NCBI RefSeq assembly: GCF_024700885.2
Contig: NZ_CP117016.1
Reading direction: 5' to 3' (one strand)
Source of the DNA: Escherichia coli
GTDB lineage: Bacteria; Pseudomonadota; Gammaproteobacteria; Enterobacterales; Enterobacteriaceae
Length of the DNA: 64,000 nucleotides
Under the pieces are notes generated by a model. The model saw only the letters and a list, made by a program, of their open reading frames with translations, made no database searches and was not told where the DNA came from. The position numbers and the translations under genes are program-made. Positions 12,360-59,837 of this stretch are shown here, in pieces (the first letter of the stretch is position 1; every line of letters starts with the position of its first letter).

Positions 12360-13083
12360 AACTGCTGCCTCCCCATGTGAGATATCGCGGTGCCAGTTCG
12401 CGCAGGATGCGCTGCGGATAATGGCGGTTCTCCCGCCAGCTGGCCGCATTGCGTCCGGCATTCACCGTGGCGACATGTCCGAACCAGCGGGTGCTGTCCA
12501 GACCTTTCTGTGATGCAAGCCGCCTGTCCCGTTGTACCCAGCCCAGACCACCGTTATAGCCCGACAGTGTCATGGCCATACGCTCGCAGTCACTGGCGGC
12601 GCTGACACGCTGCCACAGCCAGCGGTCATAGCTGACCAGCGCCCGGATAGCCCATGCCGGATTAAACGGCTCACGACTGCTCAGCATCGGTATCAACTGG
12701 CTTATCCAGTCGGCAGTGGCAGGCATGAACTGCGCCAGTCCCTGAGCGCCAGCCGGCGAGATCGCATCAGGTCGCCAGCCGCTTTCCTGATGCAGTTGCG
12801 CGGCGAAATCGGCCACCGGCGCAGACAGTCCCCATTCAAGCCGGGCATTACGGATCACATCATCGCGATACTGCAGCGCAGCCTGCGGAGGTTGTGCTGC
12901 GCATGCCTGGCTGAAAAAGCCGCCACACCAGAGCAACATTGCGACAAAGAATACCCATGCCATATGAACCAGAAAGGTCCCGGCGCGGACTGACAGGCGT
13001 TCGGTTCTGATGAAGACCCGAAAGGCTTCGAAAGCCAGTTTCAGGGACATGCATACAATCCAGGTGATCTGCGGCCAGTTCAT
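12343..13083 (-). CDS. endolysin, lytic transglycosylase (SLT domain) with N-terminal signal-anchor
   Basis: GLAQFMPATA motif and ES/GW transglycosylase signature; hydrophobic N-terminus; follows holin-like gene. Confidence 0.7.
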   Translation of the reverse strand: MNWPQITWIVCMSLKLAFEAFRVFIRTERLSVRAGTFLVHMAWVFFVAMLLWCGGFFSQACAAQPPQAALQYRDDVIRNARLEWGLSAPVADFAAQLHQESGWRPDAISPAGAQGLAQFMPATADWISQLIPMLSSREPFNPAWAIRALVSYDRWLWQRVSAASDCERMAMTLSGYNGGLGWVQRDRRLASQKGLDSTRWFGHVATVNAGRNAASWRENRHYPQRILRELAPRYLTWGGSSCVASG

Positions 13084-13085
13084 GA

Positions 13086-13436
13086 TTAAAGCCCCATCGC
13101 AACAGCCAGGCAGACCGCTGCAACAATCAGTGCACGGCGGATTAACGCAGCAGAAAACACCAGGTGAAGGCCGGTCTGTACCGGGAAACGCCCTTCAGCC
13201 ATCAGCCTGTCGTCATGTTTCAGGTACTGACCGGGACGGGCTTTGGGGAAGAGCGAACGGTCAAGCCAGTAACCCAGCACTGCTGCCAGCGTGATGAGTG
13301 CCAGCTTGTAGATCACAACAGGCAGCTGCTGTGGTGAGACCAGAGCGATGGTGCCCAGCAACAGCACTGAGGTCAGCAGCCAGCCGCTGAGGCGAGGTTT
13401 TTTAACAAGGGGAATGAATTTTTTCAGTTTTTTCAT
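13086..13436 (-). CDS. holin-like membrane protein (3 predicted TM); start set at ATG 13436
   Basis: AAGGAGA 5 nt upstream of ATG 13436; three hydrophobic segments; first gene of the lysis cassette. Confidence 0.5.
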   Translation of the reverse strand: MKKLKKFIPLVKKPRLSGWLLTSVLLLGTIALVSPQQLPVVIYKLALITLAAVLGYWLDRSLFPKARPGQYLKHDDRLMAEGRFPVQTGLHLVFSAALIRRALIVAAVCLAVAMGL

Positions 13437-13566
13437 GTGTGTCTCCTTATCTGGTGGAGACAGCATCACAAATACAGGGCGCGAAGGATTTTAAAGCGCG
13501 TTAAGAGAGCCGGGGATACGGGATGTGCAGGATAAACGATGAATTATTCACAGAGGAGAATACGAT
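13437..13566. promoter_or_regulatory. divergent intergenic region: putative late (lysis) promoter and promoter of the kinase-like gene
   Basis: 130-bp non-coding gap between divergently oriented genes that both have strong RBS. Confidence 0.4.
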
Positions 13567-14295
13567 ATGACGCAGACACTGAATCCGGTCATCACTGTCA
13601 CCGTGTCCGGTCCTGTGGGCAGCGGTAAAAGTTACGTACTGGCGCGAATAGAGGAAGTGGTGAAACAGGAATTCGGAAACAGCGTCATTGTCGACGCCGC
13701 AGACGTGGACGGTGAGCGCCGTATGAGTGGGGATGATCTGAGCACATGGCAGAAACCACGGGCTGGCACAGTGATCAGGCTGGAGGAATACACGGGACAG
13801 GGCCTGTTGTCATACGGCGAGGAGCGTATCTGTCGGACGAATGAGCTGCTGGATGTTATATGCCCCACGGGCCGGCAACCCTGGATACTGCCCGATGCAC
13901 TGCATGCCACCATTGCGGCACTGATGACAGTTTACGATCAGGAGCTGCTCATGAAGGAGTTACGTAAACTCACTGGTCAGTCAACAGAATGTTGTTCGTC
14001 CCCGAAGTACGGCAAACAGGAACACATCCCGATTAACCAGCCTCCCCGGTTCTTCGACGAATACCTTCTGACACCGGAAAATAAAGCTGAGCATGAAGAG
14101 ATCAAAGCGGCGTTGTTCCGGGAAATCAGGAAGATTGCTGAAATGCAACTGGAGGGCGGGCTGGACAGAGTGATGGCGAGAGGAGAATGGGCATCGCTGT
14201 TTGAAAGAGTTTCCCCGGAATTACTTCCCCTCGCACTGGCTATCGGGATTATGCAGACAGCGGATAAACCTCACTTACGTTCATTAAACACGTAA
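13567..14295 (+). CDS. P-loop kinase-like protein (Walker A GPVGSGKS followed by hhhDAAD, as in small-molecule/nucleotide kinases)
   Basis: GAGGAGA RBS 7 nt upstream; motif VTVSGPVGSGKSYV ... SVIVDAADVD; 242 aa. Confidence 0.6.
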   Translation: MTQTLNPVITVTVSGPVGSGKSYVLARIEEVVKQEFGNSVIVDAADVDGERRMSGDDLSTWQKPRAGTVIRLEEYTGQGLLSYGEERICRTNELLDVICPTGRQPWILPDALHATIAALMTVYDQELLMKELRKLTGQSTECCSSPKYGKQEHIPINQPPRFFDEYLLTPENKAEHEEIKAALFREIRKIAEMQLEGGLDRVMARGEWASLFERVSPELLPLALAIGIMQTADKPHLRSLNT

Positions 14296-14675
14296 CGCAT
14301 AATCCGGGATACGCATTCAGCGATGACTGCATTTTCACCGGTTTTTACTGCATCCAGAAGTGACTCTTTAAATGGTACGGGCCGGGGCTGCAGAAAGGTC
14401 GGCATGGCATTGAGCAGACAGAGCGTTTTTTCCGTGAGGACGACATCAGCCGCTCCCACAGCCAGCAACTGAGAGTAACGAATATAGCTGTTATCCCGAA
14501 GCCATATCAGCGTATCAATAAAACACCGGCACTTTTTCTGGTCGTGATCAACCTGGTCCGGGATATCGAAAAAACCAGAATAAATCAAAACCTGAGGTGC
14601 CGGATGCGTGTTCAGTAATCGGCAGAATATTTTGCCGGTGAGTACATAAAAATCATCATTTAAGGAGTGCATCAT
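14271..14675 (-). CDS. hypothetical 134-aa protein, convergent with and overlapping the 3' end of the kinase-like gene by 25 bp
   Basis: Only long ORF covering 14296-14673; E. coli-like codon usage by eye; no recognisable motif. Confidence 0.45.
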   Translation of the reverse strand: MMHSLNDDFYVLTGKIFCRLLNTHPAPQVLIYSGFFDIPDQVDHDQKKCRCFIDTLIWLRDNSYIRYSQLLAVGAADVVLTEKTLCLLNAMPTFLQPRPVPFKESLLDAVKTGENAVIAECVSRIMRYVFNERK

Positions 14676-14889
14676 GAATCCCCGATTAACGTTAACAGAA
14701 CATCAGCGCCGTGCTGAAGCAGTGAACAATGTTCTGGAAGATATTATCCGGTTATACCGCGGAGAACTGAGTGTCTGTCGTGCCGCTTTTCATTTTCAGG
14801 GAATACAAAAGCAGTTTGATACTTCTGTTTTTGCAGAAGGTATTACTTATGCCCTGGACCGGATAAGGTCAGAAAATCGCCCCGGATAA
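14674..14889 (+). CDS. hypothetical 71-aa protein
   Basis: AAGGAG 6 nt upstream of ATG; start codon overlaps the start codon of the 134-aa ORF on the opposite strand. Confidence 0.5.
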   Translation: MNPRLTLTEHQRRAEAVNNVLEDIIRLYRGELSVCRAAFHFQGIQKQFDTSVFAEGITYALDRIRSENRPG

Positions 14890-15079
14890 TCCCTAAACCA
14901 CATTAACAGAAATCCCGCCATCCCTGCCGCATCATGAAAGAACGACCAGCCCGGCACCCGAAAGCCGGGCTGGTCATCGCCCCACAGGAATGCGCTGTGA
15001 GCCGACCAAGGTTCAGTCAGTCTCGCGAGACCTGACCAGACTGCCATATTTTTTAATAATTGTAAAAGGCTTGCAGATT

Positions 15080-15844
15080 ATGAAAATGCAGACATTACCC
15101 ATCGTGCCGTGGATTGGTGGCAAACGCCGCCTTGCAAAACACATTCTGCCGCTGTTTCCGGCGCATGAATGTTATGTGGAGCCGTTTTGTGGGGCAGCAG
15201 CGCTCTATTTTCTTAAGACACCCGGCAAGATCGAAGTCATCAATGATATCAACGGTGAACTGGTGAATCTGTACCGGGTGGTAAAGCATCACCTGGAAGA
15301 ATTTGTCCGCCAGTTCAAATGGGCGCTGGTCAGCCGTCAGATCTACAAATGGCTGCAGATCACCCCGGAAGAAACACTGACGGATATCCAGCGTGCGGCA
15401 CGGTTCTACTACCTTCAGAAGCAGGCGTTTGGCGGCAAGGTGGCAGAGCACAGCTTCGGTACCTCCACCACATCCCCGCCACGCTTCAACCTGCTACGTA
15501 TTGAAGAAGAACTGTCAGCGGCACACCTGCGGCTTTCCAGAACAGTCATAGAACACATGGACTGGCAACAGTGCATTGAGCGTTATGATCGTCCGCACAC
15601 GCTGTTCTACTGCGACCCACCGTACCTGGGTACGGAAGGCTATGGTGTGGATTTTCCTGAAGGGAACTACTCGCGGCTGGCAGAGCTGGCCCGGTGCATC
15701 AGAGGAAAAATGATAATTTCGGTGAACGACATCCCGCAGATGCGCGAGGTGTTCACTGGACTGAACATACAGACAGTGAATATCAACTACAGTCTGGCGG
15801 GTAAACCCACGCCGCGCCGTGAACTGCTAATCTGCAACTTCTGA
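15080..15844 (+). CDS. DNA N6-adenine methyltransferase, Dam family (orphan)
   Basis: DPPY catalytic motif (FYCDPPYLG) and N-terminal PWIGGKRRL motif typical of Dam-family enzymes; no adjacent restriction endonuclease. Confidence 0.8.
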   Translation: MKMQTLPIVPWIGGKRRLAKHILPLFPAHECYVEPFCGAAALYFLKTPGKIEVINDINGELVNLYRVVKHHLEEFVRQFKWALVSRQIYKWLQITPEETLTDIQRAARFYYLQKQAFGGKVAEHSFGTSTTSPPRFNLLRIEEELSAAHLRLSRTVIEHMDWQQCIERYDRPHTLFYCDPPYLGTEGYGVDFPEGNYSRLAELARCIRGKMIISVNDIPQMREVFTGLNIQTVNINYSLAGKPTPRRELLICNF

Positions 15845-15874
15845 AACAAAACCGGAAAGCACAATGCTTTCCGG
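15844..15874 (-). terminator. putative rho-independent terminator downstream of the repressor gene
   Basis: 9-bp perfect stem CCGGAAAGC/GCTTTCCGG, followed on the minus strand by a T-rich tract. Confidence 0.4.
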
Positions 15875-15960
15875 TAAACCAAACAACTTCCACTATGTCA
15901 CTGGCGATGTTTTCTGAAAGCATCCAGATCAACCACCTGTCCTTTGTGTCCGGGTCAGTA

Positions 15961-16317
15961 TCAGCCTGCGATTTTTCCTGGTTTTGGCTGAGTATAGAAT
16001 CGCCCAATCTCAAGAAATGAGCGTTGTTGGTCTGGTGTCATGTCGTCAAAAGTATCTATTAGTTTTTGTTTTTCTGGGGAAATTTGATTCTGGTTTCTAG
16101 TCATACCATCTGTGCTCATTCCAGTGAGCAACCAATTTACATCAACATTAAACTCTTGATGCATCTTTAACAGAAACTCCCCTCCAGGCATCGCCTTTCC
16201 ATTTTCAATCTGACTGATACCACCATTAGAAATACCTAAACGAGCTGCAAATTCTCTCTGGTTCAACCCTGCTTTCTTCCTCACAGAAATAACGCGCTCT
16301 CCTATATCTTTGCTCAT
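15961..16317 (-). CDS. phage repressor, XRE-family HTH (Mu c analogue)
   Basis: HTH LNQREFAARLGISNGGISQIENGK; divergent from ner-like gene. Confidence 0.7.
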   Translation of the reverse strand: MSKDIGERVISVRKKAGLNQREFAARLGISNGGISQIENGKAMPGGEFLLKMHQEFNVDVNWLLTGMSTDGMTRNQNQISPEKQKLIDTFDDMTPDQQRSFLEIGRFYTQPKPGKIAG

Positions 16318-16340
16318 AAAAGTGAATCTCTATCTTGATA

Positions 16341-16358
16341 TGCTCATAATTATGAGCA
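16341..16358. promoter_or_regulatory. 18-bp perfect palindrome TGCTCATAATTATGAGCA in c/ner intergenic region (candidate operator)
   Basis: Seen directly; lies between divergent repressor and ner-like genes. Confidence 0.5.
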
Positions 16359-16410
16359 ATAATCTAACACATATAAGGCAAACATCATTGCATCAACAAA
16401 GGAGACAACG

Positions 16411-16599
16411 ATGACTGCAGAACAAGTCAAAGCTCTCTTCCGCCAGCGCGGGATCACTTTCACCCGCTGGGCAGAAGAAAACGGCTACAACCGCAATGAG
16501 GTATACCGCGTTCTCAACGGGCAGACCAAAGCCCGTTACGGTAAATCCCATGAAATCGCCGTGAAGTTGGGACTGAAATCAACAGCTCAGGCGGCCTAA
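16411..16599 (+). CDS. ner: Ner-like DNA-binding protein
   Basis: 62 aa, Ner/Nlp-like sequence; AAAGGAGA RBS; first gene of early operon. Confidence 0.7.
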   Translation: MTAEQVKALFRQRGITFTRWAEENGYNRNEVYRVLNGQTKARYGKSHEIAVKLGLKSTAQAA

Positions 16600-16645
16600 A
16601 TATTTTGAGTCTTTGTAAAAGGTTATCACATATCGCAAAAGAGGT

Positions 16646-16960
16646 ATGCAGATGAGTAAGACGAATGTTTCAAGCTCCGGCAGTCGCATCCTCCGGGTAC
16701 TCAAAGCGCTGCGCGGTCATGCCCTGAACGGTATTTCTAACGGTGAACTGGCGACAGCACTGCACGAGTCACCGGCAAACATCAACCGGGCACTCAACAC
16801 CCTCATTGAAGAAGGGCTGGCTCTGAAACTGGAGAACGGACGTTTTGCACCGGGCATCCAGTTACTGCAGATCGCCATGGCCCACAGTAACGAGATGGCA
16901 CGTGCACAGGATCGTATTAACGAAATTAACCAACGTGTCATTTCAGGTAGTCGTTTGTAA
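16646..16960 (+). CDS. winged-helix DNA-binding protein (hypothetical regulator)
   Basis: 104 aa; HTH-like segment ISNGELATALHESPANINRALNTLIEEGLA. Confidence 0.5.
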   Translation: MQMSKTNVSSSGSRILRVLKALRGHALNGISNGELATALHESPANINRALNTLIEEGLALKLENGRFAPGIQLLQIAMAHSNEMARAQDRINEINQRVISGSRL

Positions 16961-16970
16961 GGAGTAATCA

Positions 16971-17891
16971 ATGGGACGTACCAAATCACCGATTAACACT
17001 GAACTGAACGCCGATGTACCGCTGTCGGATGATCTCAACGTCAGCCTGAATGCCATGACACAGCATCGCATGGAGATCATGCAGCAGTTTGGTGATGGAC
17101 TGCCTTATGAACGTGAACGCATCGTTCACGAAGCACGTTTTTATATGGCGCAGAGTGCTGAATCTATGTTGGAAGCGGGTAAGCGGCTGATCATCTTAAA
17201 AGAAAATGAACCGCATGGTGATTTCACAAATATTCTGGAAAACGACCTCGGATTAGCACCACAGGTAGCTCGTCGCATGATGCAGGCCAGCGTGAAATTT
17301 CTCGGCAATGGAGATGAACAGCCAAAACGCTCAGCGCTGAGCGTTTTGGGAAAAACCAAGTTATATGAACTGATGGTTCTGGATGACGAAGAACTCGACG
17401 CATTAGCTGATGGTGGAACCGTCGCCGGTGCAACGCTTGATGATATTGATCGCATGACCAGCCGCGAACTGAAGGCCGCCCTGCGTGAAGCGCGCGAAAC
17501 CAACGCAGCTCAGCAACAGGTGCTTGCCGGAAAGGACGAAAAAATCAACGAACTGGCCACAAAACTGGAGAAGAAATCGCGCCTGCAACCTCCGCCGCCA
17601 GACGAAGAACTGAAAAAATTGCGGGCGGAAGTGACGGCATTAGCGGTTGAGGCCGAATCGGCTATCGCCGTCCGGCTGTCCAGTGTTTTTGAGACCCTGT
17701 GTGAATACTGCACCAAAAACATGATCGATACCCCCAGAGATTTCATGGCCGGTCTGGTCTGCCAGATTGAACGCAGTGTTCATGCATTACGTGAGACGTT
17801 TGACCTTGAGGCCGCTCCATCGGGTAACGATGCCCCCGCCTGGCTGACCGAACCGGAACCTGAAATCAACCGACCGGAGGATATGCAGTAA
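16971..17891 (+). CDS. hypothetical early protein, acidic with coiled-coil region
   Basis: 306-aa ORF, RBS-coupled in early operon. Confidence 0.5.
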   Translation: MGRTKSPINTELNADVPLSDDLNVSLNAMTQHRMEIMQQFGDGLPYERERIVHEARFYMAQSAESMLEAGKRLIILKENEPHGDFTNILENDLGLAPQVARRMMQASVKFLGNGDEQPKRSALSVLGKTKLYELMVLDDEELDALADGGTVAGATLDDIDRMTSRELKAALREARETNAAQQQVLAGKDEKINELATKLEKKSRLQPPPPDEELKKLRAEVTALAVEAESAIAVRLSSVFETLCEYCTKNMIDTPRDFMAGLVCQIERSVHALRETFDLEAAPSGNDAPAWLTEPEPEINRPEDMQ

Positions 17892-18223: not shown

Positions 18224-19993
18224 ATGACCCCGGCACTGACTGAAAAACTGGTTGAAACAGCCCGCGCGGCACGTGACGCGGGGCATGGTAAACGCGGTGC
18301 AATATACGACGCTGCCTGTGCTGAACTTGGCATGTCCCGCGCCACTCTGCTGCGCAGGCTGAAGGAGGTATCTGTGACTGATAAACGCAAAAAACGCGCC
18401 GATGCCGGGCGCAGCGCCCTGACCCGCGACGAAGCCGCGCTGATATCTGCCACACTGCGTGAGGCCACCCGCAAGAACGGTAAGCGTCTCTATTCCATCG
18501 CAGATGCAGTGGAAACCCTGCGGGCTAACGGCTTTATCACCGCAGGCAGAACAGATGAAACCACCAGTGAGTTTTTCCCGTTGTCTGAAGATGCCATCAG
18601 CCGTGCTCTGCGTAACTATGGCCTGCACCCGGAACAACTGGATGCCCCTGCACCACATACCGAAGTGGCCAGTCTGCATCCCAATCATGTCTGGCAGATT
18701 GACGCCTCACTCTGCACGCTTTACTACCTGAGCAATGGACATAAAGGGCTGCAGGTGATGGACAGCGCGAAGTTCTACAAGAACAAGCCCGCTAACCTTG
18801 CCCGTATCGCCAGTGACCGCGTGTGGAGTTACGAGATTACCGACCATGCCAGCGGCTGGATTTACGTTGAGTATGTGACGGGCGCGGAATCAGGTGAGAA
18901 CCTGTGTTCTGTGCTTATCAACGCCATGCAGGAGCGTGGCGGCGCAGACGTGCTGCACGGCGTGCCGAAAATACTCTATCTCGACCCCGGCTCGGCAAAC
19001 ACCGCGGGTATGACGAAAAACATGTGCCGCTCACTGGGCATCGACCTGATAGCGCACAAGCCGCATAACGCCCGCGCCACCGGACAGGTGGAAAAGGCGC
19101 GTGACATTATCGAACGCAAGCTGGAGCCGGGTCTGAAGTTCCGGCCGGTTCACAGTCTGGAAGAACTCAACGCGCTGGCCGCGAAATGGCGCAGCCACTT
19201 TAACGCCACGGCTGTTCACAGCCGCCACGGTAAAACCCGCACGGATATCTGGCTGAAGATTACTGCTGAGCAGCTGAAAAAAGCGCCTTCCGTTGAGGTA
19301 TGTCGTGAACTGGCTGTGGCGGCACCAGAACTCCGCAAAGTCACGCCAAAACTTCGTGTCTCGTTCCGGGGCACTGAATTTGACGTATCAACGGTACCGG
19401 GCGTACTGGTTGGTGAAAAACTGATGATTACCCGTAACCCATGGCGCAGCGATGTGGCACAGGTGGTTCTGACCGGTGAGGACGGCCACGAGACGTTCTT
19501 CCTGGTCGAAGAGGTCAGAAAGAACGAGTTTGGCTTTGCTGAAGGCGCGGCGGTATTTGGCGAAAGTTACAAAGCCCTGCCGGAAACCCCGGCACAGATG
19601 GCGGCAAAAGAAACCGAAGCGCTGGTTACCGGTACAGACAACGCCGCAGATGCAGCCGCCGCACGCAAGGCGAAGGCGCTGCCGTTCGGCGGGCGGCTTG
19701 ACCCGTATAAACATATCGACGACACCACACTTCCGGCCTATATGCCGAAGCGTGGTCAGGCCTCTGACGTACGCGGGCCGCGCACTGAACAACGTCCCAT
19801 GACTCATGTGGAGGCCGCGAAAGCCCTGCGCGATAAGTTCAGCGCCGACGGCCTTACCTGGACGCCGGAACATTACCGCCAGTTAACGGCACAGTACCCG
19901 GACGGCGTACCGGAAGCCGCACTGGATGAAGTCATGGCCACGCTGACCACACCGGCCCGCAGCAGTGTTATCAGCATTGTTAACGGCAACTGA
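18224..19993 (+). CDS. DDE transposase (Mu A analogue, integrase-core type)
   Basis: 589 aa; N-terminal HTH, WQIDAS and LYLDPGSANT DDE-type motifs; followed by ATPase partner. Confidence 0.8.
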   Translation: MTPALTEKLVETARAARDAGHGKRGAIYDAACAELGMSRATLLRRLKEVSVTDKRKKRADAGRSALTRDEAALISATLREATRKNGKRLYSIADAVETLRANGFITAGRTDETTSEFFPLSEDAISRALRNYGLHPEQLDAPAPHTEVASLHPNHVWQIDASLCTLYYLSNGHKGLQVMDSAKFYKNKPANLARIASDRVWSYEITDHASGWIYVEYVTGAESGENLCSVLINAMQERGGADVLHGVPKILYLDPGSANTAGMTKNMCRSLGIDLIAHKPHNARATGQVEKARDIIERKLEPGLKFRPVHSLEELNALAAKWRSHFNATAVHSRHGKTRTDIWLKITAEQLKKAPSVEVCRELAVAAPELRKVTPKLRVSFRGTEFDVSTVPGVLVGEKLMITRNPWRSDVAQVVLTGEDGHETFFLVEEVRKNEFGFAEGAAVFGESYKALPETPAQMAAKETEALVTGTDNAADAAAARKAKALPFGGRLDPYKHIDDTTLPAYMPKRGQASDVRGPRTEQRPMTHVEAAKALRDKFSADGLTWTPEHYRQLTAQYPDGVPEAALDEVMATLTTPARSSVISIVNGN

Positions 19994-24201: not shown

Positions 24202-24651
24202 ATGCAGAAAAAACGCCTGATACAGCTTATCCATATTGCCCGTAATGAACTGGGTATGGATGAAGACACCTACCGCCAGATGTTACAGGGGCTGACCGGT
24301 AAAGCCTCAACCAAAGGAATGGATACCACACAACTAAACTGCGTGCTGGAATCCATGAAAAAGAAAGGCTTTCGCGTTAAACCAGCCAGAAAAGCCAGCT
24401 CCGGTTTACCGCTGGATAACCATCCGCAGTCCAGGAAAATTCGTGCGCTATGGCTTGAAATGGCTGCTGCCGGCATTGTTCGTGACCGTTCAGAAAATGC
24501 ATTAGCGAGGTGGATCAAGCGGGAAACGGGCATCAGCGCCCTGCGCTGGCTCAGTACTGAACAGGCAAGCAGTGTTATTGAGAAACTGAAGAAGTGGCAG
24601 CGCAGAGCTGCGGGAGTCAAACATGAGCGACCTGAATCAGTTTCGAAGTAA
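24202..24651 (+). CDS. GemA-like (Mu gp16-like) regulatory protein
   Basis: 149 aa immediately upstream of mor, as in Mu. Confidence 0.5.
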   Translation: MQKKRLIQLIHIARNELGMDEDTYRQMLQGLTGKASTKGMDTTQLNCVLESMKKKGFRVKPARKASSGLPLDNHPQSRKIRALWLEMAAAGIVRDRSENALARWIKRETGISALRWLSTEQASSVIEKLKKWQRRAAGVKHERPESVSK

Positions 24652-25012
24652 GGGGCCGGAACTCCTGGTGGAACTGGCACAGCATACCTCTGAGACCGTT
24701 CGCGAGATTATTGATATTGAGCCCGAAGTTGCCGACCAGATTGGTCAGGCCGTCGCGAACCGAATGATGCAGGTCTGGGGCGGGCAAAACGTTTATTTCC
24801 CGATGGGCATGGTATGGAAGGTCAGTCAGCGCGACCGGGAAATCTTCAGGGAGTTTAACGGACGCAACCACCACGAACTGGCCCGCAAATTTGGTGTTTC
24901 GCTTCAGTGGGTCTACAGCGTGGTTAAGCGGGTAAGAAAAGAAGAACTGGATCGGATGCAGGGCAAGCTATTTGCTGATGAACCCGATGCAGATACGGAG
25001 AAAAAAGAGTAA
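24623..25012 (+). CDS. mor: Mor/C-family transcriptional activator
   Basis: 129 aa with C-terminal HTH HHELARKFGVSLQWVYSVVKRV. Confidence 0.7.
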   Translation: MSDLNQFRSKGPELLVELAQHTSETVREIIDIEPEVADQIGQAVANRMMQVWGGQNVYFPMGMVWKVSQRDREIFREFNGRNHHELARKFGVSLQWVYSVVKRVRKEELDRMQGKLFADEPDADTEKKE

Positions 25013-37565: not shown

Positions 37566-37611
37566 TGCGCGGTTGATAACGGTTCAGACAGGTTTAAAGA
37601 GGAATAAGAAA

Positions 37612-38511
37612 ATGACAGACAACACTCGTTTACGCATAGCTATGCAGAAATCCGGCCGTTTAAGTGATGACTCACGCGAATTGCTGGCGCGCTGTGGCAT
37701 TAAAATCAATCTTCACACCCAGCGCCTGATCGCGATGGCAGAAAACATGCCGATTGATATTCTGCGCGTGCGTGACGACGACATTCCCGGTCTGGTAATG
37801 GATGGCGTGGTAGACCTTGGGATTATCGGCGAAAACGTGCTGGAAGAAGAGCTGCTTAACCGCCGCGCCCAGGGTGAAGATCCACGCTACTTTACCCTGC
37901 GTCGTCTGGATTTCGGCGGCTGCCGTCTTTCGCTGGCAACGCCAGTTGATGAAGCCTGGGACGGCCCGCTCTCCTTAAACGGTAAACGTATCGCCACCTC
38001 TTATCCTCACCTGCTCAAGCGTTATCTCGACCAGAAAGGCATCTCTTTTAAATCCTGCTTACTGAACGGTTCTGTTGAAGTCGCCCCGCGTGCCGGACTG
38101 GCGGATGCGATTTGCGATCTGGTTTCCACCGGTGCCACGCTGGAAGCTAACGGCCTGCGCGAAGTCGAAGTTATCTACCGCTCGAAAGCCTGCCTGATCC
38201 AGCGCGATGGCGAAATGGAAGAATCCAAACAGCAACTGATCGACAAACTGCTGACCCGTATTCAGGGTGTGATCCAGGCGCGCGAATCAAAATACATCAT
38301 GATGCACGCACCGACCGAACGTCTGGATGAAGTCATCGCCCTGCTGCCAGGTGCCGAACGCCCAACTATTCTACCGCTGGCGGGTGATCAACAGCGCGTA
38401 GCGATGCACATGGTCAGTAGCGAAACCCTGTTCTGGGAAACCATGGAAAAACTGAAAGCGCTGGGTGCCAGTTCAATCCTGGTCCTGCCGATTGAGAAGA
38501 TGATGGAGTGA
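37612..38511 (+). CDS. hisG: ATP phosphoribosyltransferase
   Basis: [17 protein letters not shown] recognised; start trimmed. Confidence 0.9.
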
Positions 38512-38516
38512 TCGCC

Positions 38517-40887
<2,371 letters not shown>

Positions 40888-40888
<1 letters not shown>

Positions 40889-41954
40889 TGAGTCAGAAGT
40901 ATCTTTTTATCGATCGCGATGGAACCCTGATTAGCGAACCGCCGAGTGATTTTCAGGTGGACCGTTTTGACAAACTCGCCTTTGAACCGGGCGTGATCCC
41001 GGAGCTACTGAAGCTGCAAAAAGCGGGCTACAAGCTGGTGATGATCACTAATCAGGATGGTCTGGGAACACAAAGTTTCCCGCAGGCGGATTTTGATGGC
41101 CCGCACAACCTGATGATGCAGATCTTCACCTCGCAAGGCGTGCAGTTTGATGAAGTGCTGATTTGTCCGCACCTGCCCGCCGATGAGTGCGACTGCCGTA
41201 AGCCGAAAGTAAAACTGGTAGAGCGTTATCTGGCTGAGCAAGCGATGGACCGTGCCAACAGTTATGTGATTGGCGATCGCGCGACCGACATTCAACTGGC
41301 GGAAAACATGGGCATTAATGGTTTACGCTATGACCGCGAAACCCTGAACTGGCCAATGATTGGCGAGCAGCTCACTAAACGAGACCGTTACGCCCATGTG
41401 GTGCGCAACACCAAAGAGACGCAAATTGACGTCCAGGTGTGGCTGGATCGCGAAGGTGGCAGCAAGATTAACACCGGCGTTGGCTTCTTTGATCACATGC
41501 TGGATCAGATCGCCACCCACGGCGGTTTCCGGATGGAAATCAACGTCAAAGGCGACCTCTATATCGACGATCACCACACCGTCGAAGATACCGGCCTGGC
41601 GCTGGGCGAAGCGTTAAAAATTGCTCTTGGCGACAAACGCGGTATTTGCCGCTTTGGTTTTGTGCTGCCGATGGACGAATGCCTTGCCCGCTGCGCACTG
41701 GATATCTCTGGTCGCCCGCACCTGGAATATAAAGCTGAATTTACCTACCAGCGCGTGGGCGATCTCAGCACTGAAATGATCGAGCACTTCTTCCGTTCGC
41801 TCTCTTACACCATGGGCGTGACGTTGCACCTGAAAACCAAAGGTAAAAACGATCATCACCGTGTAGAGAGCCTGTTCAAAGCTTTTGGTCGCACCCTGCG
41901 CCAGGCCATCCGCGTGGAAGGCGATACCCTGCCCTCGTCGAAAGGAGTGCTGTA

Positions 41955-41955
<1 letters not shown>
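40888..41955 (+). CDS. hisB: bifunctional imidazoleglycerol-phosphate dehydratase / histidinol-phosphatase
   Basis: [18 protein letters not shown]-type N-terminus. Confidence 0.9.
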
Positions 41956-44033
<2,078 letters not shown>

Positions 44034-44040
<7 letters not shown>

Positions 44041-44645
44041 CAGAACAACTACGTCGCGAACTGGACTGGGAAAAAACCGACGGACTTATGCCGGTGATTG
44101 TGCAACACGCGGTATCTGGCGAAGTGTTAATGCTGGGCTATATGAACCCGGAAGCTCTGGACAAAACCATCGAAAGCGGCAAAGTCACCTTCTTCTCGCG
44201 CACTAAACAGCGACTGTGGACCAAAGGCGAAACGTCGGGCAATTTCCTCAACGTAGTAAATATTGCGCCGGACTGCGACAACGACACGTTACTGGTGCTG
44301 GCGAATCCCATCGGCCCGACCTGCCACAAAGGCACCAGCAGTTGCTTCGGCGACACCGCTCACCAGTGGCTGTTCCTGTATCAACTGGAACAACTGCTCG
44401 CCGAGCGCAAATCTGCCGATCCGGAAACCTCCTACACCGCCAAACTGTATGCCAGCGGCACCAAACGCATTGCGCAGAAAGTGGGTGAAGAAGGCGTGGA
44501 AACCGCGCTGGCCGCGACGGTCAATGACCGCTTCGAATTAACCAACGAAGCCTCTGATTTGATGTATCACCTGCTGGTGCTGTTACAGGATCAGGATCTG
44601 GATTTAACGACGGTAATTGAGAACCTGCGTAAACGACATCAGTGA
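44034..44645 (+). CDS. hisI: bifunctional phosphoribosyl-AMP cyclohydrolase / phosphoribosyl-ATP pyrophosphatase
   Basis: 203 aa, last gene of his operon. Confidence 0.9.
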
Positions 44646-48806: not shown

Positions 48807-49205
48807 TCACACGAACGATTTTGCAAAAGAAGGGTCAAATGGCCCCTCCTTAACTTCCACCATAAGAGCACGCGGAGATAGGCATTCGACACTGTGTATA
48901 TCGCCCGGAGAAAACTCCACAATGCTCATTCCAGTATTATCTCCTGCTATAAATTGCTTTATAACCTCACCATTTCTACCATACAAACAAACCTGAAGTT
49001 GCCCCTCCATAACAATGAACATTTCCCACTGATGAGGAAGTTCGTGATAATGCGGTTCAACATAGCTGCCCTTTACTAATGCAATAAGTAAACGCTGTAC
49101 CTTTTCTTGATGCGAGCCGTGCATCATAAGGTGGGAACGTAAACGTTCCGATTGCCCGGCTTGATCATATAATTCGTCGAGTTGGTCATTATCAATTAAT
49201 CGCAT
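48807..49205 (-). CDS. wbuC: WbuC-like cupin protein of L-FucNAc O-antigen clusters
   Basis: 132 aa, last gene before gnd, overlapping the upstream GT stop. Confidence 0.5.
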   Translation of the reverse strand: MRLIDNDQLDELYDQAGQSERLRSHLMMHGSHQEKVQRLLIALVKGSYVEPHYHELPHQWEMFIVMEGQLQVCLYGRNGEVIKQFIAGDNTGMSIVEFSPGDIHSVECLSPRALMVEVKEGPFDPSFAKSFV

Positions 49206-50406
49206 TGCATGCCTCCAACCTCATTTCTATCGTCTGTGCCGCAGACTCAACGGAGAATTGTTCTTTCAACAATATATTCGCCCCCGAACCAAGTTGCCGG
49301 CGCACATCAATATCATGCAACATTAATAGCGCAGATTGACATAATTTATCGTCCTCACCATTGACATGGATTAATCCCGCATTATTTTGATTGACAATGT
49401 CGAGCAAATCATTTCCGGCATTTACGCTACCTAAAATAGGTAGCGACTGAACCATATAGCCTAATAACTTACCAGGAAAATTATGGGAAGAGTGTCTAGC
49501 GGAAAGAGAAAACAAGCCGATATCCATTTCCGACAAAATGAACTTAAATTCATCTTGGTTAACCGAGGGCAAATAGGTGAAATTCGTCAATGCCCACTCA
49601 GATGCTAATGAATTAATTAATTCAACTTCATCCCCCTGGCCAATAAATAGGAAATGAGCTTGAGGATATGCTGCCATGTTTCTCACAAGTCGCATCAAGT
49701 TTGTCATGTCCTGTGCATGACCTATGTTTCCACCATAGAAGAAAATGGTTTTATCCTCTAGGCCAAGTCGCTTACGTAGTGGTATATAATCCTTGGGTAT
49801 GATCGTTGGTGTTAGGGATGCCCAATTACGCAAAACTTCGCACGGATAGCCTTTATTATCTTTCCGAAAAACATCAAGATTCTTATCAGACATAAGTCCA
49901 ATACGATTTGCCTGACGATAAGATATTTTTTCAAAAAGACGAAAGTAGCGTTCTATTGGGGAACCAGCATTAAGCATTCCTGCATCAATTACCCATTGTG
50001 GAAACATATCTCTTAAAATAAGATAAGCAGGACATTGGCAACGAGCTTTAATTTTTTTAACTAAAGGCCCCCAGAATATGGAAGGTGAATAATAAATCAC
50101 CCCCTCAAAGGTCTCTTTTTTTACCCATTTTTTGATGGCTTTCCACGCCCGATAGGACAAAAGCGTTTCATTGACCGCTCGCTGAATTTTACTTACATCC
50201 TTGAGCGGCCCGCTTTTAAAACGCCATGTTTTTACCCCCTGAAAGGTATCAAAAGAAATCTCTTCTTGCATGCCCGTACCAGGAGTAATTACCGTAACAT
50301 CGTGCCCACGCTGGATAAATTCTTGAGCAAGTTCATGAAACATTTTTGCACCAACACGAGTACTGTTGGGCAGGTAATCATCTATGATTAAAGCAAGTTT
50401 CATCAA
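49192..50406 (-). CDS. wbuB: glycosyltransferase family 4 (putative L-FucNAc transferase WbuB-like)
   Basis: 404 aa directly after fnlC. Confidence 0.65.
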   Translation of the reverse strand: MMKLALIIDDYLPNSTRVGAKMFHELAQEFIQRGHDVTVITPGTGMQEEISFDTFQGVKTWRFKSGPLKDVSKIQRAVNETLLSYRAWKAIKKWVKKETFEGVIYYSPSIFWGPLVKKIKARCQCPAYLILRDMFPQWVIDAGMLNAGSPIERYFRLFEKISYRQANRIGLMSDKNLDVFRKDNKGYPCEVLRNWASLTPTIIPKDYIPLRKRLGLEDKTIFFYGGNIGHAQDMTNLMRLVRNMAAYPQAHFLFIGQGDEVELINSLASEWALTNFTYLPSVNQDEFKFILSEMDIGLFSLSARHSSHNFPGKLLGYMVQSLPILGSVNAGNDLLDIVNQNNAGLIHVNGEDDKLCQSALLMLHDIDVRRQLGSGANILLKEQFSVESAAQTIEMRLEACNAIN

Positions 50407-51533
50407 TATTCTTTCCAGACGACTCTCTTAACATAATCTGTGTAAGAGTGAACAATTCTGACAACTTTATCCGACACATTTGGCATGCTGTAATCACTAA
50501 CCTGACGTAAAAGACGGACTTCACCTCGCGGTTGTGTTGCCAGAATATCCAGCGCTTGTAATACGCGTTCACACTCTAACCCCACCATCATGACGGATGC
50601 TTCCTCAAAGCCTTCCGGACGCTCATGCGCTTCCCGGATGTTTACCGCTGGGAAATTCATGATGGATGACTCTTCAGTGATAGTACCGCTATCTGAAAGC
50701 ACAGCTCGTGAGTTCTTCTGCAAGTGGTTATAATCATGGAAACCCAATGGTTTCAGTAGATTTATATTTGAATGAAATTCAATTCCTTGCTCACGGATTC
50801 GGTTACGTGTCCTTGGGTGTGTGGAGACAATAACTGGAAGATTATATTTTTCAGCAACAGTATTTAGAATGTTCGCAAGCTTTACGAGCTGTTTTGGAGA
50901 ATCAACATTCTCTTCACGATGCGCACTTACTACAAAAAACTCACCAGACTGTAGATTCAAACGCGATAGCACATCTGAACCATCAATTTGGGGCATATAA
51001 TATGAAAGAACCTCAAACATAGGGCTACCAGTTTTTATGATCCGATCAGCTGGGATACCTTCAGCCAAGAGATATTCACGAGCAATATCACTGTAGGTCA
51101 TATTGATATCAGCCGTATGGTCAACAATACGTCTGTTGGTTTCTTCAGGCACGCGTTGATCGAAACAACGGTTACCTGCTTCCATATGAAATATAGGCAC
51201 TTTACGGCGTTTGGCCGGAATGGCAGAAATACATGAATTCGTATCGCCCAATACCAGTATTGCTTCAGGTTTTTCGATTTCTAATACTTCATCTACCTTA
51301 ATAATAACCTGACCAATGGTTTCCGCCGCATTTTTACCCGCTGCATTTAAAAAATAATCAGGTTTTCGAACACCCAAGTCATTGAAGAACACTTCATTTA
51401 ATTCGTAATCATAATTTTGACCAGTATGGACAATAATATGCTCGCAGTATTCATCAAACTTAGCAAGAACCCTCGACAAACGGATAATCTCAGGACGGGT
51501 TCCAACAACAGACATAACTTTTAATTTTTTCAT
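50403..51533 (-). CDS. fnlC: UDP-N-acetylglucosamine 2-epimerase (FnlC)
   Basis: 376 aa non-hydrolysing 2-epimerase signature. Confidence 0.8.
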   Translation of the reverse strand: MKKLKVMSVVGTRPEIIRLSRVLAKFDEYCEHIIVHTGQNYDYELNEVFFNDLGVRKPDYFLNAAGKNAAETIGQVIIKVDEVLEIEKPEAILVLGDTNSCISAIPAKRRKVPIFHMEAGNRCFDQRVPEETNRRIVDHTADINMTYSDIAREYLLAEGIPADRIIKTGSPMFEVLSYYMPQIDGSDVLSRLNLQSGEFFVVSAHREENVDSPKQLVKLANILNTVAEKYNLPVIVSTHPRTRNRIREQGIEFHSNINLLKPLGFHDYNHLQKNSRAVLSDSGTITEESSIMNFPAVNIREAHERPEGFEEASVMMVGLECERVLQALDILATQPRGEVRLLRQVSDYSMPNVSDKVVRIVHSYTDYVKRVVWKEY

Positions 51534-52636
51534 TATAGAGGTCTCGCAATAGTATCGGGCTCATCACGGTTGAAAATTTCATTTGCCCAGAGCATGACTA
51601 TTAATTCATCAGTTCCAATATTTGTAATGTCATGTGTCCAACCAGGAACTGTTTCAACAATCTTAAACTCACCCGATGAAACTTTCAGTTCATATCGCTC
51701 ACCGGTAATCACATGTTCAAATTTAAAGCATGCCTGACCTCGAATGACCAAAAACTTCTCATTTTTACTGTGATGGTAATGTCCGCCACGCGTAATACCA
51801 GGGTGAGCAGTAAAAAATGAAAACTGCCCCGCTGAAGGCGTTTTCAACATCTCACAAAAGACTCCGCGGGCATCCCCATAAAAAGGTACCTTGTACGCAA
51901 ACTTCTCTGCTGGTAAATAACTCAGCCATGTAGAATACAATGCACGGGTAAATCCCGCCCCGACAGCCTCTGTGATCAGGGTGGAACGGCTATTTTTGAA
52001 GCTATAAATTAATTCTGCAACTTCACCAACTGTTGTTGAATAAATTGGTGCAACAACTTTATATCCACTTTCAACCGTCCCAGAGAGAAGAGCTATAGCA
52101 TCAGTACAAACATCATCAATATAGACCAGATTGACTGGCGCTGCTGCATCATTGATAGTAATCTCAATATCATTGGAAATATTGTAGCAAAAAGTTGCTA
52201 TAAAAGAATTATAGTTTGGCTTACACCATTTACCAAAAACGTTTGGATATCTGAAAATATAATACGAAGAACCACTAGCAGCAGCATATTTTTCGACATA
52301 GCTTTCAGCTACAGCTTTGCTAACCCCATAAGCATTATTAAGTTCAGCTTGTATCGAAGAACTTAGCATAATTGGTGTATTCTTACCAATAGAAAGGAGA
52401 TACTCAACTATATGCTTTGTTAAATCACTGTTTCCAGAAATAAACTCATCATCAGTCTTAGGTCTATTGATACCAGCTAAGTGATAAATAAAATCGGCAT
52501 CCTGTAAGCCTTGTTCAAGATCTTGCTTCGTTGATTCTCGATCAATTCTAATAAGATCTTTATAACCAAGTTCCTCAAGCCTCAAACATAAATTACGACC
52601 AATAAAACCATTTGCACCAGTAACTAATATTTTCAT
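51533..52636 (-). CDS. fnlB: FnlB-like reductase/epimerase (Cap5F-like)
   Basis: MKILVTGANGFIG Rossmann start; track ORF trimmed. Confidence 0.75.
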   Translation of the reverse strand: MKILVTGANGFIGRNLCLRLEELGYKDLIRIDRESTKQDLEQGLQDADFIYHLAGINRPKTDDEFISGNSDLTKHIVEYLLSIGKNTPIMLSSSIQAELNNAYGVSKAVAESYVEKYAAASGSSYYIFRYPNVFGKWCKPNYNSFIATFCYNISNDIEITINDAAAPVNLVYIDDVCTDAIALLSGTVESGYKVVAPIYSTTVGEVAELIYSFKNSRSTLITEAVGAGFTRALYSTWLSYLPAEKFAYKVPFYGDARGVFCEMLKTPSAGQFSFFTAHPGITRGGHYHHSKNEKFLVIRGQACFKFEHVITGERYELKVSSGEFKIVETVPGWTHDITNIGTDELIVMLWANEIFNRDEPDTIARPL

Positions 52637-52637
52637 A

Positions 52638-53672
52638 TCATGAATCCAGATTATATTTTTCACCAGCACGAATTGCTCGAATAAAGGCTAATTTTAGCAA
52701 GAGCTCTTTCATGCCTTCAACATCTAACCGTTGAGTATTATGAGAGTTATAATCTTCTATTTCAGATATTCGGCTATCACCTTGCTCAACATATTTGCCA
52801 TAATTAAGGTCACGAAGATCTGGCGGGACACGGTAATAATCGCCCATATCTATAGCAGCGATCATTTCCTCACGACTAAGTAGAGCTTCATATAATTTCT
52901 CGCCATGACGCGTTCCAATGACATTTACCGGATGGTCAGGAACATTTAGTAATTCCTTTAAAGCAATAGCTAATGTGTCAATAGTTGCTGCAGGTGCTTT
53001 TTGCACAAAGATATCACCATTATTACCATGTTCAAACGCATAAAGAACTAAATCTACCGCATCCTCAAGAGTCATCATAAAGCGGGTCATATTAGGATCA
53101 GTTATTGTGAGTGGCTTGCCCGCTCTAATAAGATCAACAAATAATGGAATAACTGAACCGCGAGATGCCATAACATTCCCATAACGGGTACCACATATTA
53201 CTGTTTTATTGCGATCAACATTACGGGATTTCGCGACCATGACCTTTTCCATCATAGCTTTTGAAATACCCATTGCGTTAATCGGGTATACAGCTTTATC
53301 AGTACTTAGGCATACAACCCTCTTCACTTCATTCGCTATAGCTGCTTCAAGAACATTTTCCGTACCAAGGATATTAGTTTTAACGGCTTCCATAGGATGA
53401 AATTCACATGATGGAACTTGCTTAAGTGCCGCTGCATGATATATAAAATCAACACCGCGAGTCGCATTCAAAATACTACGGTAATCTCTGACATCACCAA
53501 TATAGAACTTTAATTTTTGATTATTGTATTTTTTCCGCATATCATCTTGTTTTTTTTCATCACGACTAAATATACGGATTTCTGCAATATCTGTATCAAG
53601 AAATCTATTTAATACAGCATTCCCGAAAGAGCCAGTACCACCAGTAATTAACAGTGTTTTAGATGAAAACAT
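52638..53672 (-). CDS. fnlA: UDP-GlcNAc 4,6-dehydratase/5-epimerase (FnlA/CapE-like)
   Basis: TGGTGSFG motif, 344 aa. Confidence 0.85.
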   Translation of the reverse strand: MFSSKTLLITGGTGSFGNAVLNRFLDTDIAEIRIFSRDEKKQDDMRKKYNNQKLKFYIGDVRDYRSILNATRGVDFIYHAAALKQVPSCEFHPMEAVKTNILGTENVLEAAIANEVKRVVCLSTDKAVYPINAMGISKAMMEKVMVAKSRNVDRNKTVICGTRYGNVMASRGSVIPLFVDLIRAGKPLTITDPNMTRFMMTLEDAVDLVLYAFEHGNNGDIFVQKAPAATIDTLAIALKELLNVPDHPVNVIGTRHGEKLYEALLSREEMIAAIDMGDYYRVPPDLRDLNYGKYVEQGDSRISEIEDYNSHNTQRLDVEGMKELLLKLAFIRAIRAGEKYNLDS

Positions 53673-53713
53673 AATAACCGAACCTCAAATCATTGACAAA
53701 TATACTCTGGAAG

Positions 53714-54892
53714 CTATTTACTTACTTGACCTAACTTATTAGTAATTGAACTCTGTCCACTAAGTGTTACTCTATTCAAAAACATATATATAAAAGATAG
53801 AAAGAAATAGCCGTTAGATCCTAAAACTAAACCTTTGGTATTGAAAATTATCCCAATTAACATCCATATAATTGCTTGATATGTCATTCCAAATGTCGCA
53901 ATAGAAATAGTAAAGATTAAAAATAAAAAGAGTGTAATAAATGTTAACCCACCGTAATTAAACAGTATAACCCAGCCCATATCCGAACTTTGTTTAATAT
54001 CGGGGATTGATGAAGATATGTTTTGCTGTAATCCAAATATAATATTAAAAAAATCTAAATTACCTACAACAAACACATGTTGCTGTAATAAGATATCCAG
54101 AGTTCTTGTGCCATCTCCAGAAACGAACTCATCATAAAATCGAGGAAAGAACACTGCTCCTAAGCTATAAACTAAAACTCCCAAAATCAATACTGTTGCA
54201 ATTTTTATATTAATATTAAGTCTAGAGCAACCGATACCAATAATGGCTGCAATCACAGCCATGTTAGAATTTACGATTTGAGTCAGACAAATTAAAGTAA
54301 TTAAAGCATAACGCCTTTTCATCATAAAAAATGACATATAGATCATCAAAAATGGTGTCATGAAATTTATTTCACCCGACAACCCAAATCCTCTTACTTT
54401 AGCATTTTGTTCCCAAAGATTAACAGAGTCAGACATACCAAAGAAAGTATATAACAATCTTTTTAACTCTGGACTTATATACATACCAAAAAAAATAACT
54501 ATTTGAACCCAGAGAGAATACACTAATATTCGCTCCATTAATTTCAAGTCACCCTTTATGAATCTATTTACTAAATAATACGCAGGAACAAATGAAAATA
54601 AAAACAACATAAATAATCTAACGGTAAAATAACTTTGAAAAGAATGGCTTTTTTGAAACAAATCGAAAACCAAACAAAATAAAAAAATAATTATGAATAT
54701 AGATAACAGCAACAAATTTTTACGATCTATAGATACCAATCCATTGCCCATAGTAATCATAAAATTACGCACTAAATACATAATACCAAAAAATGCAGGA
54801 ATAAATGCCAAATATAAGAAAGGTATTATCAGCGACAATCTAAAAAAAACAACAAAAAATAATAAAAAAGCCATCAATGCATTATACTTCAT
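53714..54892 (-). CDS. wzy: O-antigen polymerase (Wzy-like)
   Basis: 392 aa polytopic membrane protein, very AT-rich gene. Confidence 0.55.
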   Translation of the reverse strand: MKYNALMAFLLFFVVFFRLSLIIPFLYLAFIPAFFGIMYLVRNFMITMGNGLVSIDRKNLLLLSIFIIIFLFCLVFDLFQKSHSFQSYFTVRLFMLFLFSFVPAYYLVNRFIKGDLKLMERILVYSLWVQIVIFFGMYISPELKRLLYTFFGMSDSVNLWEQNAKVRGFGLSGEINFMTPFLMIYMSFFMMKRRYALITLICLTQIVNSNMAVIAAIIGIGCSRLNINIKIATVLILGVLVYSLGAVFFPRFYDEFVSGDGTRTLDILLQQHVFVVGNLDFFNIIFGLQQNISSSIPDIKQSSDMGWVILFNYGGLTFITLFLFLIFTISIATFGMTYQAIIWMLIGIIFNTKGLVLGSNGYFFLSFIYMFLNRVTLSGQSSITNKLGQVSK

Positions 54893-54941
54893 TGTTTTTT
54901 ACCTTCCATACAAATGTCTTAATAAATGAAGATAGCATCAT

Positions 54942-57169: not shown

Positions 57170-57237
57170 TGAAGTGCCCCATATACAACAGATATCATTC
57201 GAGTAACTTATTCACATGAATCAATAAGTTGTTTATT

Positions 57238-59829: not shown

Positions 59830-59837
59830 CCCCTAGA

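Follow-up and report, generated by a model that had tools for sequence, protein, structure and literature searches.

In the transposable phage Mu, the DNA modification gene mom is regulated through an mRNA hairpin bound by the translational activator Com, and its promoter region contains an overlapping leftward RNA polymerase site, momP2. In Mu-like prophages, Mom can be replaced behind Com by Hia5, Hin1523 and Nma1821, Dam-related enzymes that produce N6-methyladenine (m6A) non-specifically, are silent in lysogens and are thought to act in anti-restriction (Drozdz et al. 2012, PMC3299994). ORF48 of phage B3 lay outside the 1000 closest relatives of Hia5, and its activity had not been demonstrated (PMC3299994). 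Here we describe a relative of B3 ORF48 encoded in a BcepMu-like prophage of Escherichia coli, together with a conserved element of ~140 bp just upstream of the gene. The locus lies in a 64,000-nt stretch of contig NZ_CP117016.1 (assembly GCF_024700885.2), called the window below, whose positions 13000-17000 match Escherichia phage PhiKM, of the genus Bcepmuvirus, at 100% identity.

The methylase gene itself is real, already catalogued and of an ordinary, known kind. Its product (RefSeq product name 'DNA adenine methylase', PGAP-annotated) is also encoded at 1031787-1032551 in E. coli ST131 EC958, within the sole Mu-like prophage of that genome, which can be equated with Phi2 because of its invertible tail-fibre segment (1005540-1007607). 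The D12-class orphan methylase ('Dam homolog') of Phi2 has been described as M.EcoMIV (EC958_1101), with no recognition site known for homologues of >65% identity; its transcription in lysogeny broth was significantly below that of dam, and none of the EC958 m6A motifs (GATC plus three assigned to other enzymes) was attributed to it (Forde et al. 2015, PMC4659465). M.EcoMIV is identical in protein sequence to the window methylase and resides in the same BcepMu-like prophage; that account is silent on the upstream element, on the kinship with B3 and Com, and on the BcepMu-type nature of Phi2 (PMC4659465).

More worth following is a conserved control module that accompanies the methylase and whose mechanism we infer. 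The explanation that we favour, with a probability of roughly 0.55, is that the locus is a Mom-like anti-restriction cassette whose methylase would be made only in lytic growth and silenced by an upstream region encoding an RNA on the opposite strand.

An intact Dam-fold methylase that differs from host Dam

The methylase matches Pfam PF02086 (MethyltransfD12; 6.9e-29), phrog_56 (1.5e-100), the PADLOC MTase_II model PDLC03253 (371 bits) and, just above the cutoff of 114.85 bits, the NCBIfam 'Dam family' TIGR00571 (116.6 bits). A WIGGKRRL motif at the N-terminus, the motif I segment EPFCGAA (residues 34-40) and DPPY (residues 179-182, nt 15614-15625) conform to the alpha-class order of motif I, recognition domain and motif IV, and residues G13, K15, D56 and D179-Y182 are invariant in 50 members of the methylase family. 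An AlphaFold2 model built on 50 homologues reached a predicted local distance difference test (pLDDT) score of 90.3 and contains the Dam fold together with its helical recognition domain; the model can be superposed on E. coli Dam (template modelling score, TM, 0.80) and DpnM (TM 0.78), and also on McbE1 and T4 Dam. Judged by its motifs and predicted structure, the protein appears to be an intact, active-looking alpha-class (D12, Dam-fold) N6-adenine DNA methyltransferase, in agreement with a first inspection of the letters (hereafter the sequence-only reading), which had noticed an adenine methyltransferase with DPPY and a Dam-like N-terminus in the prophage. The PhiKM record (L001 29908-30762) gives a 284-aa methylase, corresponding to an open reading frame (ORF) from 14990 in the window. 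We rejected this start, as homologues have 254-256 aa and, in the Klebsiella relative, a frame break interrupts the extension; the 30 extra codons overlap the RNA element described below and are not conserved.

The methylase belongs, on sequence comparison, to the family of phage B3 ORF48 (64% identity over the full length, E 3e-124) and phi1026b gp26 (~65%); the methylases of phiHAP-1 and of an Acinetobacter phage are 62% and 58% identical to it. In a library of 50%-identity cluster representatives this family has 674 members at E<=1e-30. Among these are giant proteins of 1000-2500 aa with 2-4 copies of the methylase domain (P0123, P0138, P0141, P0149, P0175, P0186, P0235, P0267), which look like multi-methylase fusions. 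Membership of the Hia5/Hin1523 group was considered and rejected: the Com-linked methylase gp53 of Haemophilus phage SuMu, an inferred stand-in for Hia5, matches the DPPY region only (BLASTP E = 0.023). M.EcoGII was likewise set aside as a relative, being of the beta class according to the literature while the window methylase is of the alpha class. Publications on the Campylobacter CJIE1 Dam, on VHML/VP882 and on Shewanella and Pseudomonas prophages were uninformative on the specificity of the methylase.

The name Dam, also used in the sequence-only reading, holds for the family and overstates the case for a true Dam: the protein scores 67 bits against the true-Dam equivalog NF008152, below its cutoff of 441, and does not clearly keep the residues that read GATC. 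By this measure the methylase is not an orthologue of host Dam. It shares fold and catalytic motifs with the GATC enzymes E. coli Dam, T4 Dam and DpnM, whereas its identity to them is 23-26%. In the HMMER alignment, K9, L122, R124 and P134 of E. coli Dam fall on P, K, A and S, and the position of K9 is occupied by P, G or S across the methylase family. The DNA-reading hairpin also differs, with F-G-G-[KR]...[ST]-F-G in the methylase family (95 members) and Y-N-G-L-C-R...P-F-G-R-Y in Dam and the other GATC enzymes. The target is probably other than plain GATC, and the specificity may be relaxed.

A different explanation would be a GATC-specific Dam isoschizomer that tops up host Dam during rapid phage replication, for instance to avoid MutH nicking of under-methylated DNA, or for methylation-dependent transposition or packaging, and leaves the methylome unchanged. 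The TIGR00571 score, the GATC enzymes as best structural matches, a conserved K/R that can be aligned with Dam R124 and the lack of an extra motif in EC958 would all fit, as would the depletion of GATC in the prophage (window 1-25100), with 12 sites against ~30 expected in the early region; the late region has 37 against 50-70, and the adjoining host DNA is near expectation. The low identity to GATC enzymes, the apparent absence of equivalents of K9, L122 and P134 and the equivalog score argue in the opposite direction. Moreover, members of the family abound in phages of Burkholderia and Pseudomonas, and a harmless redundant activity would need neither Com in relatives, nor an opposite-strand RNA, nor silence in the lysogen. 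We regard an isoschizomer as possible, though rather unlikely.

A conserved element upstream of the methylase

In the 150 bp 5' of the start codon, the phages of E. coli and Klebsiella share ~88% identity and show compensatory changes in a 12-bp hairpin, just left of which the homology starts. In the window, phi1026b and phiHAP-1 alike, a long hairpin (H1) is followed by a 5-bp helix (H2, CACNG-N7-CNGTG), the sequence GCCAAGG and a 12-bp palindrome (Table 1). We took 80 related loci from IMG/VR, 79 of them testable, and aligned 33 non-redundant copies of the element with MAFFT, blind to structure; the covariance model R1 was built from this alignment. The 33 copies had been chosen by the H2 pattern, so the 100% pairing of H2 is by construction. 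The alignment supports a further closing helix, P1, which encloses H1 and H2 in a three-way junction. Paired cells amount to 89.8% in the alignment, against 24-38% when the partners are slid, and cells changed on both sides number 104 compared with 33 in shuffles, and none of 500 shuffles attained the figure observed.

Table 1 Features of the methylase locus (window coordinates)
Feature	Position	Strand	Remarks
Conserved control element, ~140 bp	14924..15064	neutral	covariance model R1, 94.5 bits, E 3e-29
Candidate small RNA, ~105 nt	14930..15031	-	start ~15031 and end ~14930 predicted; ends inferred from -10 box and U-rich tail GUUCUUUCAUG
Closing helix P1 (14940-14943 with 15011-15014)	14940..15014	-	5/6 pairs changed on both sides
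Helix H1, 12-bp stem GACCAGCCCGGC/GCCGGGCTGGTC	14944..14975	-	likely terminator stem of the RNA
Helix H2, CACAG-N7-CTGTG	14983..14999	-	near-invariant stem, hypervariable 7-nt loop
Perfect palindrome GTCTCGCGAGAC	15020..15031	neutral	single occurrence in the window; reaches over 15016-15036 if one bulge is allowed
Sigma-70-like match CTGACC-17-AATAAT, 5' of methylase	15032..15060	+	doubtful, not conserved in close relatives
Predicted promoter of the small RNA: -35 TTTACA (15066-15061), 17-bp spacer, -10 CAGTCT (15043-15038)	15038..15066	-	
Methyltransferase gene, 254 aa, ATG start	15080..15844	+	WP_000783854.1 = REBASE M.EcoMIV
Hairpin between methylase and repressor	15851..15875	-	T-run on minus strand only
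Prophage repressor-like helix-turn-helix gene	15961..16317	-	convergent with methylase, 116 bp between

Model R1 matches 71 of the 79 testable loci (~90%), as well as the window, EC958, TUM1857, KP12, phi1026b, phiHAP-1, Acba_3 and B3. All matches lie 5' of the first gene of the module, be it com or the methylase, and in a single orientation. The element spans Mu-like, lambdoid, P2-like and telomere phages of several proteobacterial orders; R1 did not find it in BcepMu, SuMu or Mu, and eight loci were without it even with the search filters off. No Rfam family reaches its threshold on the element, and the window copy has no Rfam match at E<=10, RF00236 included. The control module, outside Rfam and absent from the literature examined, appears to be undescribed so far.

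This covariation bears on whether the methylase might be an inactive relic whose upstream conservation merely reflects recent common descent. That no activity has ever been recorded is all that would speak for it; the catalytic motifs are all intact, the predicted structure is of high confidence, the family has its several hundred representatives, and the compensatory changes in the element extend across loci with methylases 60-65% identical, in unrelated phage types. A relic is therefore hardly credible.

Signals for a candidate small RNA on the opposite strand

Several features of the element differ between the two strands. Read on the methylase strand, the helices contain far more A.C mismatches than G.U pairs (70:12 in the model-fitted alignment, 27:7 in the structure-blind one), which points to the opposite strand, where A.C reads as a G.U wobble. 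In 27 of the 33 copies, the reverse complement gives the more stable fold. On the minus strand, the otherwise variable right flank has a conserved -10 box (T-12 in 64/71 copies, A-11 and T-7 in 71/71), with hexamers such as TAGGCT, TAGAAT, TAGACT and TAAACT in the family and CAGGCT or CAGTCT in enterobacterial copies. The 12 nt past the closing helix hold on average 5.7 T, compared with 2.5 in controls. Finally, copies of the element in relatives give minus-strand matches to the plasmid counter-transcript family RF00236 (ctRNA_pGA1) of 44.4, 42.7, 42.3 and 33.5 bits, below the gathering score of 45, the first three being from Burkholderia-type copies, and the phiHAP-1 copy has a weak match to SymR. 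These five strand signals point to a structured RNA of ~105 nt opposite the methylase.

Within this candidate RNA, the H2 stem (CAC-N-G / C-N-GTG) is nearly invariant and its 7-nt loop differs in almost every phage. Such a pattern is expected for the kissing-loop specificity determinant of an antisense RNA and suggests phage-specific antisense recognition. The putative promoter on the methylase strand overlaps the predicted promoter of the small RNA back to back; transcription of the methylase more probably reads in from upstream than from that site, and the small RNA would then be a genuine counter-transcript of the leader. In trans, the small RNA paired with the translation initiation region no better than controls did, by a method poorly suited to the question. 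Anti-Shine-Dalgarno pairing within a plus-strand leader was also tried and rejected (matched mean -5.8, mismatched mean -5.4 kcal/mol).

Alternatively, the element could act on the methylase strand, the mRNA of the methylase or of com having a structured 5' leader under riboswitch-like or protein-bound translational control. Its constant position immediately before the first gene of the module would fit such a leader, and the plus strand can form these helices too (z = -5.1), with palindrome extensions in Burkholderia copies that would use G.U pairs on that strand; the control of Mu mom by a Com-bound mRNA hairpin provides a precedent. Nevertheless, the excess of A.C over G.U arises precisely on the plus strand, the invariant TAnnnT and the U-rich tail have meaning only on the minus strand, where the Rfam near-matches also lie, and the junction pairs with the ribosome-binding site no more strongly than mismatched controls do. 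We therefore consider a plus-strand leader unlikely and retain the opposite-strand RNA as the preferred interpretation.

The palindrome adjoins the predicted promoter of the small RNA and sits at the predicted 5' end of the RNA. RNAalifold missed it on the raw alignment, in which two subgroups were one column out of register, and it was analysed per sequence instead. Its halves co-vary, with 17 different sequences among the 33 copies and 26 unbroken palindromes; variants include CCTACCGGTAGG, GCCTACGTAGGC, CCTCCCGGGAGG, CCTTCCGGAAGG and GTCATCGATGAC, and B3 has GCTCACGTGAGC. The symmetry through the centre would suit a DNA operator for a dimer, whereas the Burkholderia variants, which differ by a 2-bp central insertion, would suit a hairpin better. 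Host factors aside, the methylase itself is the sole protein common to all forms of the module.

Com homologues in front of related methylases

In 15 of the 79 IMG/VR loci (L021, L026-L028, L036, L054, L055, L057, L071, L073-L075, L088-L090), a Com-like zinc-finger ORF of 50-70 aa with the pattern IRCxxC...IKCPRC stands directly 5' of the methylase, the start of which it overlaps. Matches of these ORFs are to the Com families phrog_6417 and phrog_13819, and both there and in B3 they sit between the RNA element and the methylase. In B3 (L092), the Com homologue ORF47 (1864-2049) overlaps the start of ORF48, annotated as a DNA adenine methyltransferase, and the module lies inside the tail operon. 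To judge from these sequences, in B3 and in the 15 loci a methylase of this family stands where Mom would be expected, following a Com homologue. The methylase also often lies within a few to ~100 bp of the end of a viral contig (L020, L022-L024, L026, L028, L029, L043, L048, L049, L058, L059 and others), which is the place of mom in Mu.

Near the 3' end of the Com-like ORFs there is a conserved segment, GA[AG]GGCC[AG]CGAGC[CT]TCC, that could be a Com-binding hairpin. Two tiny annotated ORFs of B3, ORF45 and ORF46 (L092 1597-1822), overlie the RNA element (model match 1717-1856) and are probably not real genes.

The sequence-only reading had drawn a parallel with Mu, in which a phage-borne Dam might govern a mom-like system. 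Such a role finds no support here: a motif scan of the prophage part of the window (1-25200) revealed no Com-like ORF, the identical PhiKM record has neither mom nor com annotated, and the control regions contain no GATC. What remains of the parallel is of another kind, namely that the methylase family itself replaces Mom behind Com, with a conserved control region of its own.

The prophage and the genes around the methylase

The BcepMu-like prophage was found in 634 of 5426 complete E. coli genomes (~12%), including the pandemic ST131 clone. The prophage has the BcepMu layout, with leftward late genes (holin at 13086-13469, transglycosylase, spanin, terminase and onward) and rightward early genes (Ner-like gene, transposase at 18224-19993, B-like ATPase, Gam, and Mor at 24623-25012). 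Its right end is at ~25174 (…TCAAGTCTAATCA), and those of L004 and L002, in other genomes, are at ~15860 and ~26170. The host gene at this end differs among the window, EC958 (ycaL) and TUM1857 (araH), consistent with transpositional insertion. Farther along, at 37573-44645 and 49000-60000, the window holds an E. coli-type his operon and then gnd/ugd and a low-GC (29-42%) O-antigen cluster, all unrelated to the methylase.

The methylase occupies a slot between the repressor and the lysis genes and is convergent with the repressor, as had been noticed from the sequence; the hairpin between them is best taken as the repressor terminator, because its T-run is on the minus strand only. To the left lie three ORFs, at 13567-14295 (+, with the P-loop GPVGSGKS), 14271-14675 (-) and 14674-14889 (+), the last two divergent, with starts that overlap by 2 bp and leave no room for an intergenic promoter. 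They match, respectively, phrog_3787, phrog_2266 and phrog_4490, all PHROGs of unknown function, and a search of the three for nucleases and PADLOC defence systems gave no nuclease and no significant defence match. With no cognate restriction enzyme among its neighbours, the methylase deserves the description 'orphan' that it had been given.

The contents of the slot vary. BcepMu has the unrelated genes gp18-20 between repressor and holin, and the BcepMu-like prophage of Klebsiella KP12 has the methylase in the same slot with other neighbours, its homology with the window beginning just left of the upstream element and stopping at the methylase stop codon. Since other genes are found there in BcepMu and KP12, we consider it a variable cargo slot, and the adjoining ORFs independent cargo because they differ in the Klebsiella relative; the idea of a circuit between the methylase and these genes finds no support. 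The methylase is best seen as a self-contained accessory cassette in this slot of the transposable, BcepMu-like prophage.

The early promoter TTGATA-17-AATAAT (16335-16363), located between the genes for the repressor and the Ner-like protein, contains a perfect palindrome of 18 bp, TGCTCATAATTATGAGCA (16341-16358), which is presumably the immunity operator. It occurs once in the window, so that no repressor operator was found near the methylase, and no late-promoter motif common to the methylase and the lysis or head operons was found. Neither the methylase control region nor the early operator has a GATC site, nor is there a GATC cluster.

As a further alternative, the methylase might be a lysogenic-conversion factor, expressed from the prophage to reprogram host gene expression epigenetically. 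Morons at this position frequently bring a promoter and a terminator of their own, the methylase gene is flanked by hairpins, and the prophage is widespread in pathogenic lineages. Yet in EC958 the gene is transcribed significantly below dam and the lysogen methylome has no additional motif, and the association of the family with Com and with late operons points to expression in the lytic phase. Such a conversion factor seems very improbable.

A proposed mode of action

Anti-restriction is the most plausible role of the methylase. We propose that the enzyme would be kept off in the lysogen and produced solely in lytic growth, when it would methylate replicating phage DNA and render the progeny resistant to restriction in the next host, as a functional analogue of Mom. 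A relaxed target would harm an mrr+ host, and mrr is present in EC958. Silencing would be exerted by the ~140-bp upstream region through the opposite-strand RNA and the palindrome: the small RNA might pair with read-through transcripts of the methylase that start upstream, or else rightward transcription might face competition from the small-RNA promoter. Com would add an extra layer of control in some phages.

A number of observations weigh against this proposal. MAFFT sets a family-conserved K/R (residue 120) against Dam R124, which would be compatible with GATC specificity; as HMMER and MAFFT place the GATC-contact residues differently, the target is not derivable from sequence alone, and any GATC activity of the methylase in EC958 would be masked by host Dam. 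In the element, only P1 and H1 provide independent evidence of covariation, H2 having been a selection criterion. The enterobacterial -10 boxes (CAGTCT/CAGGCT) are weaker than those elsewhere in the family, the -35 shows little conservation, a single-sequence minus-strand fold of the window copy does not reproduce H2, and pairing between the element and the ribosome-binding site of the methylase is not beyond chance. Lastly, the window copy has no Com gene and lies away from the prophage end.

In a wider and more tentative form, which we would not put beyond a minority chance, the B3 ORF48/M.EcoMIV family as a whole would consist of Mom analogues of relaxed specificity, toxic to the host, that move between unrelated phages with a silencing small RNA and a palindromic switch, in the manner of a type I toxin-antitoxin system, with Com as an optional third layer. 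If so, a large, target-unassigned family of phage methylases standing in for Mom may include broad-specificity m6A enzymes like Hia5, which are valuable reagents for chromatin mapping. A conserved opposite-strand RNA with its palindrome would also explain prophage methylases that are invisible in lysogen methylomes.

Comparison with known systems

The com-mom module of Mu is likewise a modification system of a transposable phage, lethal if mis-expressed and tightly controlled, and relatives of the methylase similarly stand behind Com homologues. Mom itself is not a methyltransferase, being an acyltransferase-fold enzyme that makes N6-carbamoylmethyl (acetamido) adenine; Mu is without the upstream element, and the window locus is without a GATC cluster. 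Hia5, Hin1523 and Nma1821, judged through the SuMu proxy, form another subfamily than the window methylase. A similar arrangement is that of B3 ORF47-ORF48, also in a transposable phage and with the same upstream element (50 bits); unlike it, the window copy is without Com and lies between the repressor and the lysis genes.

As regards control, the plasmid counter-transcript RNAs (RF00236) and the divergent or antisense antitoxin RNAs of type I toxin-antitoxin loci, such as SymR, are small RNAs encoded on the opposite strand just 5' of the gene that they control, as predicted here. The candidate small RNA is built like a counter-transcript: a recognition hairpin, whose loop has 7 nt, precedes a GC-rich terminator hairpin that ends in a U-tail. 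It differs from ctRNA_pGA1 and SymR in its extra closing helix, which creates the three-way junction, in the adjoining palindrome and in that no copy attains the Rfam gathering score. The controlled gene is also of a different nature: a replication initiator or a small toxin in the counter-transcript and type I systems, and a DNA methyltransferase in this locus.

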